Positions 22,664 through 51,528 of a DNA stretch of 64,000 bases are shown in pieces. The position numbers and the translations under genes are program-made. The DNA is from Alphaproteobacteria bacterium. Lineage in GTDB: Bacteria > Pseudomonadota > Alphaproteobacteria > UBA8366. Position 1 is the stretch's first letter, and every line of letters starts with the position of its first letter. The notes under the pieces were generated by a model. That model did no database searches. It was not told where the DNA came from and saw only the letters and a list, made by a program, of their open reading frames with translations. The stretch is from the NCBI GenBank assembly GCA_965228425.1, contig OZ245815.1, forward strand, positions 2,957,234 to 3,021,233. The letters run 5' to 3'.

Positions 22664-23143
22664 ATGAAACAGATTCTGATTTTGGCATGTGCGCTTGCCG
22701 TGGGTGCATTGGGTGCCTGTGCGAGCATGGAAAGCGGATCCGGCAAATCCGATACGATGGCCAAGAAGGCCGACGCGCCGAAGAAGGCGAAAAAGAAAAA
22801 GAAGAAACGGCCGGCGTCGGGTAGTCCCTTCACGGTTTACTTCAAGCAGAATTCTGCTGAACTGACCGAGAAATCGCAGGGTGACGTTTTCGACATCATG
22901 CAGAAGGTTCGTGTTTACAAACCGAAGTCCGTGCACATCGTGGCGCACACCGATCTGACCGGGTCGGCGGCCGCCAATAAGAAAATGTCCGAGAAGCGCG
23001 CGGCAGAGCTTGCAGGTAAGATGAAGGGTGCCGGCGCCAAGACCGTCACAACGGAAGCGGCGGGTGATACGCAACCGCTTGTCGATGTAAAAGGACCGAG
23101 CGCGGCTAACCGCCGTGGCATCATCATCTTCAAGAAGAAGTAA
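22664..23143 (+). CDS. OmpA-like (peptidoglycan-associated) lipoprotein, paralogue 1, with a poly-Lys linker
   Basis: AAGGAGG SD. Lipobox LGAC. KKAKKKKKKR linker. OmpA_C-type domain (FTVYFKQNSAELT..., VAHTDLTGSAAANKKMSEKRA, NRRGIIIF). Confidence 0.8.
   Translation: MKQILILACALAVGALGACASMESGSGKSDTMAKKADAPKKAKKKKKKRPASGSPFTVYFKQNSAELTEKSQGDVFDIMQKVRVYKPKSVHIVAHTDLTGSAAANKKMSEKRAAELAGKMKGAGAKTVTTEAAGDTQPLVDVKGPSAANRRGIIIFKKK
22781..22810 (+). repeat. purine (AAG/AAA) low-complexity tract encoding KKAKKKKKKR
   Basis: aagaaggcgaaaaagaaaaagaagaaacgg, in frame within paralogue 1. Confidence 0.9.
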
Positions 23144-23414: not shown

Positions 23415-24245
23415 ATGACTATGAGGATTGTACTGGCAAGCGCGGCCTGTGCGCTGATATTGGGCGCCTGCGCGAGTTCCGATCAGGTAAAGGAAGCTGC
23501 GAATGCGAAGCCGACCGGTTCCGCTTTCAGCCAAAGCCTGCATAAGGAATATGTCAACCTGGCCAAAGCCGAACTCGCCGAAGGCGATCGGGGCGATGCG
23601 TCGCATTTCGCACTCAAGGCGAAAGAGGCCGCCTCCGGCAAGTCCGTGTCGCCGGACGACTTTAAAATCCGAACGATCGGGGGCCCGGCGGGCAAGACCT
23701 TGAAAGGCGAACGCACGCGTTTGATTTCCGCTCTCGGGGGCGCGGAGGCCAAGCGCAAACCGGCCGTCGCCGCGAAGGCCCAGGGCATGTTCGATTGCTG
23801 GATGCAGGAGCAGGAAGAAGGCTGGCAGTCGAAGGACATTAAGGCCTGCCGAACCGGCTATGAAAAGGCCATGGCGCTGCTGACTCCGAAGAAGAAAAAG
23901 AAAAAGAAAAAGGCATCCTCCAAGAGTCCGTACACCGTCTATTTCAAGTTCGATTCGACGGACCTGACCGATAAGTCGGAAGGCGCGCTGTACGACGTCA
24001 TGCAGGACGTTCGGAAGTTCAAGCCGAAAACCGTGCACGTGGTCGCGTATACCGATCTTTCGGGCGACGCCGGTTACAACGCGAAGCTTGCCGCGAAACG
24101 CGCCGCGGATCTTGAGAAGAAACTCAAGGATGCGGGTGCGAAGAATGTAACGGTGGAAGCCAAGGGTGAGGCAGATCCGATCGTGGATACGGGCAAACCG
24201 AACCAACCCAATCGGCGTGCCATCATCGTCTTTAAGAAAAAATAA
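23415..24245 (+). CDS. OmpA-like lipoprotein, paralogue 2 (extra helical N-terminal domain, K8 linker)
   Basis: Lipobox ILGAC. K8 run. C-terminal domain YTVYFKFDSTDLT..., VAYTDLSGDAGYNAKLAAKRA, NRRAIIVFKKK is colinear with paralogue 1. The start could be 23397, 23415 or 23421. Confidence 0.8.
   Translation: MTMRIVLASAACALILGACASSDQVKEAANAKPTGSAFSQSLHKEYVNLAKAELAEGDRGDASHFALKAKEAASGKSVSPDDFKIRTIGGPAGKTLKGERTRLISALGGAEAKRKPAVAAKAQGMFDCWMQEQEEGWQSKDIKACRTGYEKAMALLTPKKKKKKKKASSKSPYTVYFKFDSTDLTDKSEGALYDVMQDVRKFKPKTVHVVAYTDLSGDAGYNAKLAAKRAADLEKKLKDAGAKNVTVEAKGEADPIVDTGKPNQPNRRAIIVFKKK
23889..23912 (+). repeat. eight consecutive Lys codons (AAG/AAA mix)
   Basis: aagaagaaaaagaaaaagaaaaag, in frame within paralogue 2. 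The longest pure A run is 5. Confidence 0.9.
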
Positions 24246-48296: not shown

Positions 48297-48497
48297 ATTT
48301 CGAACTCCTAAGCTTGCATCCAATATTCAGAGAAATTTAACTGTAACAGTCCGCATCTTCTGGCAAGCGTTTAACGATTGTTAATGATATCGCCTATATT
48401 CCCTAGTGTTGCTAAGGTATATAGGCTTGATTCCTTGCCTGGACAAACGATCATTTTTCATGTTCAATTTTAGAAAATCTAAAGTTAGGAATATTTG

Positions 48498-49409
48498 ATG
48501 GCGACCCGCTTGCCGCCGCTGAACGCGCTCCGGGCATTCGATGCGTCCGCACGCCACCGTAGTTTCACGCGGGCGGCCGAGGATTTGAGCGTGACCCCGG
48601 CGGCCATAAGCCACCAAATCAAGGGGCTCGAGGAGTATCTCGGTGCGAAACTGTTCCGCCGCGCCAAGGGGACACTCATGCTCACCGAGGCGGGGCAACG
48701 CATCATGCCCGGCGTCCGCAAGGGGTTTTCGGCCTTCGAGGAGGCGATGGAGAATTTCGGACTGTACGACCAGACGGGACAGATCAACGTGGCGGTGACG
48801 CCGTCCTTCGGTGCGAAATGGCTGATTCCCCGCTTGGAACACTTCAACGCGGCGCATCCGGAGATCGATATCCGGATTTCGACCACGATGGAGATCATCG
48901 ATTACGAGCAGGAAGGGGTCGATATCGGCATCCGCTTCGGACGCGGCGAATATCCCGGTTTGGTGGTCGAACCGTTGCTCAGTTCCGAGGTCACGCCCGT
49001 TTGCAGTCCGGAGCTCTTGCAGGGCGACCACCCAAAGCTCGAGAAGCCGAGCGACCTGCGGCATTTCACGCTGTTGCACGATGAGAGCCCCTTGCTGGAC
49101 GAAGCGCATCCGAATTGGGCCATGTGGTTGTTGGCGGCAGGCGTCACCGACGTGGATGCGAGTCACGGCATGCGCTTTGACAGCGCAAGCTCGGCCATCA
49201 GCGCCGCGATCGAAGGGGTCGGGGTCGCGCTCGGACGCACCGCCCTGATCGGCCGCGATATCGCCGCGGGCCGGTTGGTGCGGCTGTTCAAGCTCAGCCT
49301 GCCGATCCGCTTCGGCTACTATGTCGTCTATCCCGAGCGTAGTCGCAATCGTCCGAAGGTCATGACCTTCCGCGACTGGTTGTTCGAGGAAGTCCGCGAG
49401 CCGGGCTAG
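48498..49409 (+). CDS. LysR-family transcriptional regulator (GcvA-like subfamily)
   Basis: MATRLPPLNALRAFDASARHRSFTRAAEDLSVTPAAISHQIKGLEEYLGAKLFRR closely follows the GcvA-type N-terminus. Confidence 0.85.
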   Translation: MATRLPPLNALRAFDASARHRSFTRAAEDLSVTPAAISHQIKGLEEYLGAKLFRRAKGTLMLTEAGQRIMPGVRKGFSAFEEAMENFGLYDQTGQINVAVTPSFGAKWLIPRLEHFNAAHPEIDIRISTTMEIIDYEQEGVDIGIRFGRGEYPGLVVEPLLSSEVTPVCSPELLQGDHPKLEKPSDLRHFTLLHDESPLLDEAHPNWAMWLLAAGVTDVDASHGMRFDSASSAISAAIEGVGVALGRTALIGRDIAAGRLVRLFKLSLPIRFGYYVVYPERSRNRPKVMTFRDWLFEEVREPG

Positions 49410-50464
49410 GGTATCGCCCGGCGCGCTGCGACATCTCCCGCCAGCTGTTCCAGGGCTGCTTCGGATGCTTCCCAATCGATGCAGCCGTCCGTGATGCTCT
49501 GGCCGTAGGTTAGCGCTTGCCCGGGCACCAAATCCTGGCGGCCGCCGACCAAATTGCTCTCCGCCATGACCCCGATGATCCGCCCGTCGCCGTCGGCGAT
49601 CTGTCGGCCGACATCCGCGAGGACATTTGGCTGGTTTTCCGGCCTTTTTGCGCTGTTGGCGTGGCTTGCATCGATCATCACCGCCGGCTGCAGCCCCGAC
49701 TTCACAGCGATCGCGCAGGCGTCGTTGACACTGTCGGCGTCATAATTCGGCTTGCGGCCACCGCGGAGGATGATGTGGCAATCCGTGTTGCCGGCGGTGG
49801 CGGCGATGGCGGACCGGCCGTCCTTGGTCACCGCCATGAAATGATGCGGATGGGAGGCCGAACTCACGGCGTCGACCGCGATCTGGACGTTGCCGTTGGT
49901 GCCGTTCTTGAAGCCGACCGGGCAGGACACGCCGGACGCCAACTCACGGTGGACCTGACTTTCCGTCGTCCGGGCGCCGATCGCGGCCCAGGACACGAGA
50001 TCCGCGATGTATTGCGGCGTGGTCATCTCCAGGAATTCGCAGCCCGCCGGCAGGCCGAGCGCGTTGATGTCGAGCAGCAGCTTCCGGGCAAGCCGCAAGC
50101 CTTGCTCAATCTCGAAACTGCCGTCCAGGTTCGGGTCGTTGACCAGGCCTTTCCAGCCGACCGTGGTGCGCGGTTTCTCGAAATAGACCCGCATGATGAC
50201 CTCCAGCGTGTCTGCATGACGGTCGCGCAGCGCGGCCAGACGCTCTGCGTAGTCCATGGCCGCTTTTGGATCGTGTATCGAGCAGGGGCCGATGATCACG
50301 GCCAGCCGGTCGTCCTGCCGGTGGATGATGCGCTGGATCGCGCTGCGCGCCCCGGTCACGGTGCGGGTCACCGCAGCGTCGCGCGGCAACTCGCCCATGA
50401 CCTGGGCCGGGGTGTCGAGGGGTTTGATTTCGCGAATGCGAATGTCGTCTGTCGTGTCGAGCAC
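49406..50464 (-). CDS. aroG: 3-deoxy-7-phosphoheptulonate (DAHP) synthase, class I (AroF/G/H type; feedback specificity unknown)
   Basis: IREIKPL, LAVIIGPCSIHD, KPRTTVGWKGL, IGARTTESQVHRE, GVSCPVGFKNGT. GTG 50464 has an AAGGAG SD. The ORF is open to 50689. Confidence 0.9.
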   Translation of the reverse strand: MLDTTDDIRIREIKPLDTPAQVMGELPRDAAVTRTVTGARSAIQRIIHRQDDRLAVIIGPCSIHDPKAAMDYAERLAALRDRHADTLEVIMRVYFEKPRTTVGWKGLVNDPNLDGSFEIEQGLRLARKLLLDINALGLPAGCEFLEMTTPQYIADLVSWAAIGARTTESQVHRELASGVSCPVGFKNGTNGNVQIAVDAVSSASHPHHFMAVTKDGRSAIAATAGNTDCHIILRGGRKPNYDADSVNDACAIAVKSGLQPAVMIDASHANSAKRPENQPNVLADVGRQIADGDGRIIGVMAESNLVGGRQDLVPGQALTYGQSITDGCIDWEASEAALEQLAGDVAARRAIP

Positions 50465-50502
50465 GGCGTAAACTCCTTGTTTATGCGTCACGCCGGCGGC
50501 AC

Positions 50503-50528
50503 AAAAAAACCGCCAGGGACTGGCGGTT
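50503..50528 (-). terminator. intrinsic terminator inside the aroG 5' leader (attenuator segments 3:4)
   Basis: The minus strand reads AACCGCCAG-ucc-CUGGCGG followed by U7. It ends 38 nt before the aroG GTG. Confidence 0.65.
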
Positions 50529-50552
50529 CTGAGACTTTCTTCGGTCTTTGGT

Positions 50553-50636
50553 TTAGACCAAACGCATCCCTTCCGCCGCCAAAGGCTTCGGATAGCCAAA
50601 AAACCAAAAATAGGACGTGGCGGTCGAGTGATGCAT
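50553..50636 (-). CDS. candidate aromatic-amino-acid leader peptide (27 aa)
   Basis: I translated it codon by codon as ATG CAT CAC TCG ACC GCC ACG TCC TAT TTT TGG TTT TTT GGC TAT CCG AAG CCT TTG GCG GCG GAA GGG ATG CGT TTG GTC TAA, which gives MHHSTATSYFWFFGYPKPLAAEGMRLV. There is no obvious SD. Confidence 0.5.
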   Translation of the reverse strand: MHHSTATSYFWFFGYPKPLAAEGMRLV

Positions 50637-50700
50637 AGCCGGTTAAATAGTACCGCCGGATCGGTTTGTCCACGGTTCATTTCCGGCAATGCGCGACCGG

Positions 50701-50723
50701 CGGTTCGTTACGCGGTTCGTTAC
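50701..50723. repeat. tandem 12-bp direct repeat CGGTTCGTTAC(g/c)
   Basis: cggttcgttac at 50701-11 and 50713-23. Related copies are CGGTTCAT at 50683 and CGGTTG at 50725. It lies in the divergent aroG-leader/nitroreductase region. Confidence 0.6.
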
Positions 50724-50796
50724 CCGGTTGGCGTGTGGCCCGGCTGCCCGTATAAGATGCCGCCCAGCCGATAACAACAGCCGACCAAGGACGACA

Positions 50797-51528
50797 ATGA
50801 GCGCAAATGCCAAATCCGTTGATATGACCCCGCCGAAAGAGGCGGATGTCGCCACATCCGTTGACGACGCCATCGCCTCCCGGCGGTCGATCCGTGCCTT
50901 CTTGCCGACCCCGGTGCCCCGCCATTTGATGGAGCATATCCTGGAAGTGTCGGCGCGGGCGCCGAGCGGCACGAACATGCAGCCGTGGAAGGTTTATGTC
51001 GCCGCAGGCGCCGCGAAGGAACGCATGTCGCAGGCGATCCTGGATGCGTTCGAAGCGGGCGAGGTGCATAAGCGGAGCTGGAAATACTACCCGGACGAAT
51101 TCTTCGAACCTTACAAGTCGCGCCGCCGTAAGGTCGGCTGGGACCTCTACGGCACGCTCGGGATCGAGCGCGGCGAGACCGAGAAGATGAAGGCGGCACG
51201 GGCCCGGAACTACGTCTTTTTCGACGCGCCGGTCGGCCTGATCTTCGCCATCGACGACAAGCTAGAAATCGGCAGTTGGCTCGACTACGGCATGTTCATG
51301 GAGAACATCATGATCTCGGCACGCGGCCATGGCCTGCACACGATCCCGCAAGCCGCTTTCAGCGACTACCACGCGATAATCCGGGAACATCTGGGCATCC
51401 CCGAGGATCACACGATCATTTGCGGCATGTCGGTGGGCTATGCGGATTTGGACGCGCAGGTGAACCAGTTCAGCACCGAGCGCGCGCCGGTAGAGGGTTT
51501 CGCGACCTTTATCGATTATCCGGCTTAG
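50797..51528 (+). CDS. nitroreductase-family protein
   Basis: AIASRRSIRAFLPTPVP, APSGTNMQPW and the rest of the nitroreductase fold pattern. ATG 50797 lies inside the longer ORF. Confidence 0.85.
   Translation: MSANAKSVDMTPPKEADVATSVDDAIASRRSIRAFLPTPVPRHLMEHILEVSARAPSGTNMQPWKVYVAAGAAKERMSQAILDAFEAGEVHKRSWKYYPDEFFEPYKSRRRKVGWDLYGTLGIERGETEKMKAARARNYVFFDAPVGLIFAIDDKLEIGSWLDYGMFMENIMISARGHGLHTIPQAAFSDYHAIIREHLGIPEDHTIICGMSVGYADLDAQVNQFSTERAPVEGFATFIDYPA

Follow-up and report, generated by a model that had tools for sequence, protein, structure and literature searches.

Why is an aroG-type gene preceded by a very short open reading frame (ORF) rich in aromatic codons, with an intrinsic terminator standing between the two? 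The question is raised by a 64,000-nt stretch of DNA from an alphaproteobacterium of lineage UBA8366 (GenBank assembly GCA_965228425.1, contig OZ245815.1, forward-strand positions 2,957,234 to 3,021,233), referred to here as the window, in which a gene for 3-deoxy-D-arabinoheptulosonate 7-phosphate (DAHP) synthase, the entry enzyme of the common aromatic pathway, lies on the minus strand downstream of such an arrangement. In Escherichia coli, the aromatic entry step is served by three isoenzymes, each of which is repressed through TyrR or TrpR; to our knowledge, transcriptional control of this step is poorly documented in most Alpha- and Betaproteobacteria. An initial annotation of the window had proposed a four-segment attenuator at this position. 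Sequence comparison and modelled RNA folds indicate that the region is likely to be a ribosome-mediated (leader-peptide) transcription attenuator controlling a monocistronic aroG-type DAHP synthase gene, and the element as such is real and conserved and very probably functional. Its parts in the window, in the order in which they would be transcribed, are as follows.

50667-50672, minus strand: predicted -35 box TGGACA, a 5/6 match to TTGACA
50645-50650, minus strand: predicted -10 box CTATTT, lying 8 nt upstream of the leader ATG
50636-50553, minus strand: leader ORF (ATG at 50636, TAA at 50555-50553), 27 codons plus TAA, product MHHSTATSYFWFFGYPKPLAAEGMRLV
50618-50636, minus strand: segment 1, with core CCGCCA (50623-50618) and a 5' arm reaching the AUG; pairs with segment 2 in the minimum-free-energy (MFE) fold of the free RNA
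50612-50592, minus strand: regulatory codon run Tyr-Phe-Trp-Phe-Phe-Gly-Tyr, leader codons 9-15
50573-50581, minus strand: segment 2, UGGCGGCGG, with segment 1 or segment 3 as alternative partners
50530-50506, minus strand: terminator hairpin, segments 3 and 4, GAACCGCCAG-UCC-CUGGCGGUUU, 11 bp counting G-U, GC-rich, -16 kcal/mol
50509-50503, minus strand: U7 tract of the intrinsic terminator, read from the sequence; the T-run is invariant in the alignment of homologues
50473-50478, minus strand: Shine-Dalgarno (SD) sequence AAGGAG of aroG, read from the sequence
49406-50464, minus strand: aroG-type class-I-alpha DAHP synthase gene, GTG start, 352 aa; TIGR00034, 510 bits

Anatomy of the aroG leader

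When the minus strand from 50672 to 50462 was re-read, each part of the leader and terminator anatomy given in the initial annotation was found to be present. The 27-codon ORF carries its aromatic run at codons 9-15 as described, and the hexamers CCGCCA (leader nt 14-19 and 111-116) and UGGCGG (nt 56-61 and 122-127) do occur four times in alternating polarity. The intrinsic terminator sits between the leader ORF and aroG, as ribosome-mediated attenuators require, and its U-tract ends 38 nt before the aroG GTG (50464), the distance originally reported. The sequences given for segments 1 and 2 are also present, with coordinates that were off by one: ACCGCCACG occupies 50624-50616 rather than 50625-50616, and UUUGGCGGCGG occupies 50583-50573 rather than 50584-50574. 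The assignment of the downstream gene to class-I DAHP synthases holds as well, given the TIGR00034 match listed above and E. coli AroG structures as the best match in the PDB (E = 4e-136). The isoenzyme type is ambiguous, with an AroG equivalog score of 532.9 (below the cut-off of 568) and an AroH subfamily score of 484.7 (above the cut-off of 463).

The aromatic run was set against chance by means of 1,998 stop-to-stop segments drawn from the six frames of the window. Apart from the leader, no segment held a mixed Tyr/Phe/Trp run in which 6/7 or more of the residues are aromatic, where 0.03 seven-residue windows that aromatic would be expected, and the run is thus far beyond chance. The remaining two high-scoring hits arise from TTTCTT repeats of the minus strand (22780-22810 and 23885-23911) read as poly-Phe; on the plus strand the same repeats read as AAGAAA lysine-codon runs, which resemble lysine-rich protein tails. 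The leader region folds at -74.4 kcal/mol (z = -3.2 against dinucleotide shuffles), and the duplex of segments 1 and 2 (1:2) in the window has an energy of -13.9 kcal/mol. No further leader-peptide attenuator was found in a scan of the whole window, and no second promoter is apparent. A generic sigma-70/terminator scan detected neither the promoter nor the terminator of the leader, because its rules are strict.

Conservation among orthologous loci

For the homologue set, the AroG protein was scanned against one genome per species and the best 80 loci, in which AroG is 68-94% identical, were retained. The unit of promoter, leader ORF, terminator and aroG is found in 80/80 of these orthologous loci and, in addition, in Paracoccus. 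Its carriers span the Alpha-, Beta- and Gammaproteobacteria and include Bradyrhizobium, Devosia, Inquilinus, Kaistia and Bauldia among the Alphaproteobacteria, Achromobacter and Verticiella among the Alcaligenaceae and other Burkholderiales, and Dyella and Rhodanobacter among the Rhodanobacteraceae. All homologues have an ATG-initiated leader ORF of 23-28 codons with an aromatic run, in which Phe, Tyr and Trp interchange and synonymous changes occur while the ATG, the frame, the length and the position of the stop are kept; the flanking residues vary. Representative leaders from other genera are as follows.

Bradyrhizobium: MITVATSYFWYFSYDSSLAAGGSRSI
Devosia: MINAATFYWYFSYPLPAEAIARVS
Devosia, second example: MNLRAAYSYWYFTTGSRWQPKGRV
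Achromobacter: MKFASPAFYFYFYGFLKPLAEEGTRSI
Rhodanobacter: MTFPSARLYFWFYGYQMPQAEPRVRS

The GC-rich hairpin with its T-tract was recovered in 78/80 loci by a simple scan and in all of them by a covariance model built from 54 leaders, which places exactly one full-length copy in each locus, always directly upstream of aroG; no second full-length copy before other genes was found in the search of these loci. The same model detected a Paracoccus replicon outside the training set (40.7 bits, E = 2.8e-8), where the leader reads MSQQMFYTASFYWFRCIQRGRVAV and AroG is 58.5% identical. The terminator typically ends 31-50 nt before aroG; measured to the aroG match, the distance is 80-103 nt in L008, L070, L078, L079 and L080 and 31-54 nt in the other loci. 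No such leader precedes the aroG homologue of Burkholderia sp. YI23, of Mycetohabitans or of Salinivibrio, so that the element, while widespread, is not shared by every class-I-alpha aroG gene.

Weak matches (17.6-21.1 bits) to the model's 3' half also lie just downstream of aroG in three loci, namely L003 (4191-4272; labelled Mycobacterium sp. KBS0706), L004 (4256-4316) and L040 (4194-4270; Inquilinus), where a similar GCCGCC-type terminator probably stands at the end of the gene.

The initial annotation had proposed aligning the regions upstream of related aroG genes and looking for a conserved aromatic run and for compensatory changes in the segments. The run is kept in 80/80 loci and the complementarity of the segments is conserved; compensatory changes were found for the terminator, and the covariation of the 1:2 and 2:3 helices stays within the range of the controls. 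In a model-made alignment, counted column by column and compared with 500 shuffles, 95% of the cells in the terminator helix (3:4) are paired, three pairs have changed on both sides, with compensatory G-C to A-U changes, and the covariation lies above all 500 shuffles.

Folding and geometry of the switch

The working of the switch was modelled for 78 distinct leaders, the set to which the leader counts given below refer, by folding with a ribosome footprint masked at every codon and the RNA truncated before segment 4. When the A-site was on the first aromatic codons, the probability that segment 3 is paired upstream was 0.70-0.71, with the partner centred on GGCGG, as compared with 0.31-0.38 when the ribosome covered segment 2 and 0.45 when the A-site was at the stop codon. 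Together with the conserved complementarity, these masked folds make the switch thermodynamically plausible, and they support the earlier proposals that the pairings 1:2 plus 3:4 and the pairing 2:3 are mutually exclusive and that a ribosome on the aromatic codons frees segment 2 for segment 3. In the homologues, segment 1 ends at the first aromatic codon and segment 2 mostly starts 7-10 nt past the last one; the regulatory codons are thus positioned so that a stalled ribosome blocks 1:2 and leaves segment 2 free, and in the masked folds it is segment 3 with which segment 2 then pairs. It had also been proposed that a ribosome at the stop codon would cover segment 2, and this part is rejected: segment 2 lies 18 nt from the stop codon in the window and mostly 15-19 nt from it in homologues, whereas a footprint extends only some 15 nt upstream of the A-site, which would place the terminating ribosome inside the antiterminator and not over segment 2. 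Segment 3 mostly starts 22-31 nt past the stop codon.

In the stalled-ribosome fold of the window (28-nt footprint on the aromatic codons, RNA truncated before segment 4), a long composite stem of three parts is predicted. In one part, GGCGGCGG (nt 57-64) pairs with nt 111-119, which comprise CCGCC and the beginning of the terminator loop; the other two parts are as follows.

50531-50570, minus strand: predicted middle antiterminator helix of the stalled-ribosome folds, GGGAU (50570-50566) with GUCUC (50535-50531), that is, nt 67-71 with nt 102-106
50540-50562 (nt 75-97), minus strand: apical antiterminator hairpin UUUGGUCU/AGACCGAA, predicted by folding, which contains the leader stop UAA, the U of UAA being in a loop-proximal pair

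As modelled, the antiterminator is therefore larger than the 2:3 pairing alone, being composite and having the leader stop codon inside it. A two-state fold is predicted in eight clades including Paracoccus, in all of which 2:3 closes a stem enclosing the stop codon, and inner helices analogous to the middle helix of the window are seen in other clades. The 1:2 helix appears in the free-RNA MFE structure of the window and of seven other clades. In the window, this structure also pairs the leader AUG (nt 1-7, 50630-50636) with nt 69-75 (50562-50568) as an outer extension of 1:2; the 5' end is likewise drawn into the 1:2 helix in L003, L005, L010 and L081, and not in L016, L067 and L080. Where it is predicted, such pairing of the AUG could limit initiation to a co-transcriptionally loaded ribosome.

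Mean duplex energies over the leaders are -18.2 (1:2), -13.5 (2:3) and -16.3 (3:4) kcal/mol, and with shuffled segment 1 regions the 1:2 mean is -13.3 kcal/mol as opposed to the observed -18.2. Swapping partners across clades weakens the pairing by 3.5 (1:2), 0.9 (2:3) and 1.8 (3:4) kcal/mol, and the cognate partner beats the cross-clade partner in 76%, 67% and 95% of sequences, respectively. For 2:3, 86% of the alignment cells are paired, compared with 18-76% when one side is slid against the other. The GGC(G/A)G of segment 2 is nearly invariant in the alignment and is read in different frames, as cuG-GCG-Gcg in Bradyrhizobium and as uGG-CAG in the Devosia clade represented by L016. Since both ends of the peptide vary freely around CCGCC-like and GGCGG motifs that are kept, and since the segment 2 motif sits in differing frames, the constraint on the segments appears to act at the level of the RNA and not of the peptide. 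The predicted 1:2 and 2:3 helices have good support from conserved complementarity and from modelling, and are not proven by covariation.

Proposed mechanism

In the mechanism that we propose, transcription would start from a sigma-70-type promoter (TGGACA, 16 nt, CTATTT) lying about 8 nt upstream of the leader AUG, giving leaderless or nearly leaderless translation of the ORF, whose seven-codon Tyr/Phe/Trp run falls in the loop between segments 1 and 2. When aromatic aminoacyl-tRNAs are scarce, the first ribosome would stall on the run and occupy segment 1 and the 1:2 loop, so that segment 2 stays free; its GGCGG would pair with the CCGCC of segment 3 and close the composite antiterminator with the middle helix and the stop-codon apical hairpin. 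Segment 4 would then be left without a terminator partner, and RNA polymerase would proceed into aroG. With all three tRNAs charged, the ribosome would pass segment 2 to the stop codon and sit inside the would-be antiterminator, segments 1 and 2 could re-form their helix behind it, and segment 3 would be free for segment 4, so that transcription stops at the U7 tract and an RNA of about 134 nt is released; termination in this state may come about through the ribosome inside the antiterminator, through the re-forming of 1:2, or through both. In untranslated RNA, 1:2 plus 3:4 is the minimum-energy fold, and the default state would accordingly be off. The anatomy, its conservation, the covariation of the terminator and the thermodynamic plausibility of the switch come from sequence or computation; where transcription starts, that the ORF is translated, that the terminator works in vivo and that each of the three amino acids elicits a response we infer. 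The promoter abutting the ATG, the leaderless start and the composite antiterminator, as predicted here from sequence and modelling, are additions to what the initial annotation had described.

Several observations weigh against this mechanism. Without a ribosome, the probability that segment 3 is paired upstream is 0.52 over all leaders and 0.77 in Bradyrhizobium L010; in ribosome-free truncated RNA, segment 2 thus often prefers segment 3, and termination in the charged state must rely on kinetics and ribosome sterics. The covariation of 2:3 is 0.042 as against a shuffled mean of 0.040, a value reached by 132/500 shuffles, and its core GGCGG/CCGCC is invariant. For 1:2, 66% of the cells are paired, the covariation is weak (45/500 shuffles reach it) and the registers differ between clades. 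Invariant cores of this kind, in 1:2 as in 2:3, are uninformative for covariation, and as both values lie within the controls no covariation support is claimed for either helix; RNAalifold on a MAFFT alignment likewise recovered the terminator alone. The weakest part of the proposal is the sensing of each of the three amino acids, which is unproven given that there is about one Trp codon per leader (none in 5/78) and that the Tyr codon of AroR is reported to have had no measurable effect in Corynebacterium glutamicum.

Which aromatic amino acids may be sensed

This last point leads to a possible alternative, of tentative standing, in which an attenuator of the same kind effectively senses Phe only, or Phe and Tyr, while the Trp codons and perhaps the Tyr codons contribute little. 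It can draw on AroR of C. glutamicum, which, with its Phe-Tyr-Phe codons, reportedly responded to Phe and not to Tyr, and on Rfam, where searches of the whole window at permissive and gathering thresholds gave no family at threshold and a sole similarity to Phe_leader (RF01859; 27.9 bits, E = 0.016), a score that is nevertheless far under the gathering score of 55. The codon content of the leaders can be read in both directions. There are 4-7 aromatic codons per leader, usually with Trp among them, and the mean numbers are 2.4 Phe, 2.6 Tyr and 1.0 Trp codons, so that Tyr codons are as common as Phe codons although Trp averages only about one. All three amino acids are present in 73/78 leaders, TGG being retained across alpha and gamma clades, whereas 5/78 (L049, L052, L070, L076 and L080) have Phe and Tyr codons only. 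Four of these Trp-less leaders are beta-proteobacterial (an Alcaligenaceae metagenome-assembled genome (MAG), a 'Proteobacteria' MAG, Verticiella and Achromobacter) and one comes from an unclassified alphaproteobacterial MAG, which points to lineage-dependent differences in the amino acids that are sensed.

Codon usage also bears on the Phe-centred alternative. In these GC-rich genomes, 84% of the Phe codons in leaders are TTT (156/185), compared with 5% in the adjacent aroG coding sequences, and 62% of the Tyr codons are TAT, compared with 40% in the adjacent aroG. The strong TTT bias of the Phe codons would suit a device tuned to Phe; possibly it reflects selection for slowly decoded wobble codons, which would give more sensitivity, or for a U-rich, unstructured 1:2 loop.

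Predicted promoter and leaderless start

For the three-amino-acid attenuator we propose that the leader ORF stands on an mRNA that is leaderless or nearly so. In 79/81 sequences of the three classes the leader ATG follows the end of a CTATAT-like -10 box by 7-9 nt, and a -35 box of the type (G/A/T)TGACA is found at the same position, with a 16-nt spacer to the -10 box, in nearly all 81 sequences. An SD-like core occurs within 15 nt before the leader ATG in only 2/78 leaders, and between the terminator and aroG in 77/78 loci. With a promoter adjoining the ATG and no Shine-Dalgarno sequence, the leader ORF is probably leaderless or nearly so, and from the geometry of the -10 box transcription would begin on the AUG or no more than about 2 nt from it. 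The promoters of the eight beta and gamma members also show a TGnTA motif, which has been reported as an extended -10 motif upstream of leaderless mRNAs in Bradyrhizobium japonicum, where 192 transcription starts lie exactly on start codons (PMC4842269).

The attenuator could otherwise work as proposed with its ORF on a short conventional 5' untranslated region, initiated in a non-SD manner, or with a promoter further upstream. The promoter is a consensus match that the generic sigma-70 scan missed, which would leave room for such an arrangement; it is nonetheless unlikely, as the geometry of -35 box, 16-nt spacer, -10 box and 7-9 nt to the ATG is kept across three classes, an SD sequence is absent from 76/78 leaders, and leaderless mRNAs are common in B. 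japonicum.

Relation to known families and other kinds of control

The proposed leader-peptide attenuator falls into no curated family of the databases searched. The Rfam scan for known leader families, which the initial annotation had suggested, gave the outcome described above, and NCBIfam and Pfam gave no match at E up to 10 for seven representative leader peptides. Exact-sequence look-up of the leader peptides returned only unnamed or 'hypothetical protein' entries, and PGAP annotates nothing at the Paracoccus leader copy. Alternative hairpins followed by a terminator are also the format of attenuators controlled by a protein or a ligand (T-box, TRAP-like or riboswitch-like), in which the small ORF would be untranslated. 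This is very improbable here: besides the lack of any Rfam family at threshold, T-box, TRAP and riboswitch cores included, the window leader has no GAG or UAG triplets upstream of its terminator and hence no TRAP-type (G/U)AG array, and the conserved ATG, frame, ORF length, stop position and aromatic residues would be needless for an untranslated RNA. Weaker still is the view that the hairpin acts constitutively, as an ordinary terminator or insulator, or closes a small-protein gene at its 3' end, and that the aromatic peptide serves some purpose other than aroG control. This view can point to the occasional calling of the peptide as a hypothetical protein in metagenome annotations. Against it, the terminator stands between a dedicated promoter and aroG, where permanent termination would shut off an essential pathway gene, the unit is found before aroG only, and the peptide tracks RNA-level constraints outside its aromatic run.

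The initial annotation knew of no attenuator reading all three aromatic amino acids ahead of a DAHP synthase gene, and none was found in the literature either; nor was a description of a proteobacterial aroG leader family found there, in a coverage that stops short of Vitreschak et al. (2004), Neshat et al. (2014) and Merino's database. We put the chance that the family has already been predicted somewhere at roughly one in four. Of the novelty first suggested, it is the three-aromatic form that stands as not found described, since leader-peptide control of DAHP synthase has already been shown in C. glutamicum and predicted elsewhere. The kind of mechanism is classical, of the trp, phe and his type, and brings no conceptual change to attenuation; the variant features, namely the three aromatic amino acids, the probably leaderless leader ORF in Proteobacteria and the regulatory codons in the 1:2 loop, are modest. 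A more far-reaching view, which we regard as doubtful, is that this is an undescribed RNA family of three proteobacterial classes in which the leaderless AUG acts as a one-shot co-transcriptional timer and three tRNAs are integrated, and in which the RNA of about 134 nt or the 27-aa peptide acts in trans on aromatic-pathway genes, like rnTrpL and peTrpL.

Implications

If the attenuator works as proposed, one RNA device would read the charging of Phe, Tyr and usually Trp tRNAs for a single aroG-type gene of Bradyrhizobium, Devosia, Paracoccus, Achromobacter, Rhodanobacter and their relatives. Hundreds of genomes in which this intergenic region is at present without annotation would gain a regulatory signal there; Rfam would gain the seed alignment for a new family, and the Proteobacteria an example of an attenuator on a leaderless ORF. 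For strain engineers, deletion of segment 4 would be a target by which carbon flow into the shikimate pathway could be deregulated.

Neighbouring genes

The genes on either side of the element, and long ORFs opposite the coding sequences, are as follows.

48495-49409, plus strand: convergent GcvA-like LysR-family regulator (NF008352, 353 bits), whose 3' end overlaps that of aroG by 4 nt (49406-49409)
50689-51528: nitroreductase/BluB-like gene, divergent from the leader promoter, with weak family matches only
49517-50638, plus strand: antisense ORF of 373 aa opposite aroG
48381-49475, minus strand: antisense ORF of 364 aa opposite the LysR gene

Antisense ORFs of this length are typical of GC-rich DNA, and nothing marks these two as genes.

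Comparison with known attenuators

The aroG leader is most readily compared with the enterobacterial leaders trpL, pheL and hisL (Trp_leader, Phe_leader and His_leader), with which it shares an ORF of end-product codons, a terminator before the first structural gene and, as proposed, four segments forming 1:2 plus 3:4 or 2:3 and a readout of tRNA charging through ribosome position. Unlike these, it would control the entry enzyme of a common pathway and not a terminal branch, and its run mixes three amino acids; its regulatory codons lie in the predicted 1:2 loop and not within segment 1, and its stop codon is predicted to lie inside the antiterminator and not between segments 1 and 2. It also lacks an SD sequence, has a predicted promoter abutting the AUG, and does not belong to their sequence families, as the Phe_leader score given above illustrates. 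Multivalent attenuators are known from E. coli, where the thr leader has Thr and Ile codons and the ilvGMEDA leader has Ile, Leu and Val codons. In these, as would be the case here, one peptide integrates the charging of several tRNAs of a shared pathway, although the thr and ilvGMEDA leaders are SD-dependent, read other amino acids and belong to other families.

Another example is the trpL leader of Sinorhizobium meliloti, whose terminated leader RNA rnTrpL and peptide peTrpL can act in trans (PMC6614838, PMC7298713). It is an alphaproteobacterial attenuator that depends on the ribosome; it differs in sensing Trp only and in standing upstream of trpE(G), and a function in trans is not indicated for the aroG leader.

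Control of this kind has also been considered for other DAHP synthase genes. The attenuation hypothesis for E. coli aroF dates from 1980, and attenuators before Vibrio aroF-tyrA are among the predictions in Merino's database. In Acholeplasma, uORFC-13-1 upstream of aroF is a predicted upstream ORF with Phe codons, followed by an intrinsic terminator; -35 and -10 boxes of its own are also described (Brewer et al., 2021, PMC8632094). It resembles the aroG leader in having an upstream ORF, a terminator and promoter boxes of its own before a DAHP synthase gene; in contrast to the aroG leader it is found in Mollicutes, has a ribosome-binding site and a U-run that codes for at least one Phe, and is described without a Tyr/Trp run, and it is a different RNA family. 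A further parallel is the aroR leader (Phe-Tyr-Phe) upstream of aroF in C. glutamicum, for which derepression under Phe limitation has been shown experimentally and the Tyr codon had no measurable effect (Neshat et al., 2014, as summarised in PMC11802643 and PMC4046766). The aroR leader is actinobacterial and has three aromatic codons and no Trp, whereas the aroG leader belongs to Proteobacteria and holds 4-7 aromatic codons, Trp usually among them; what the two would have in common is leader-peptide attenuation of a DAHP synthase gene by mixed aromatic codons.

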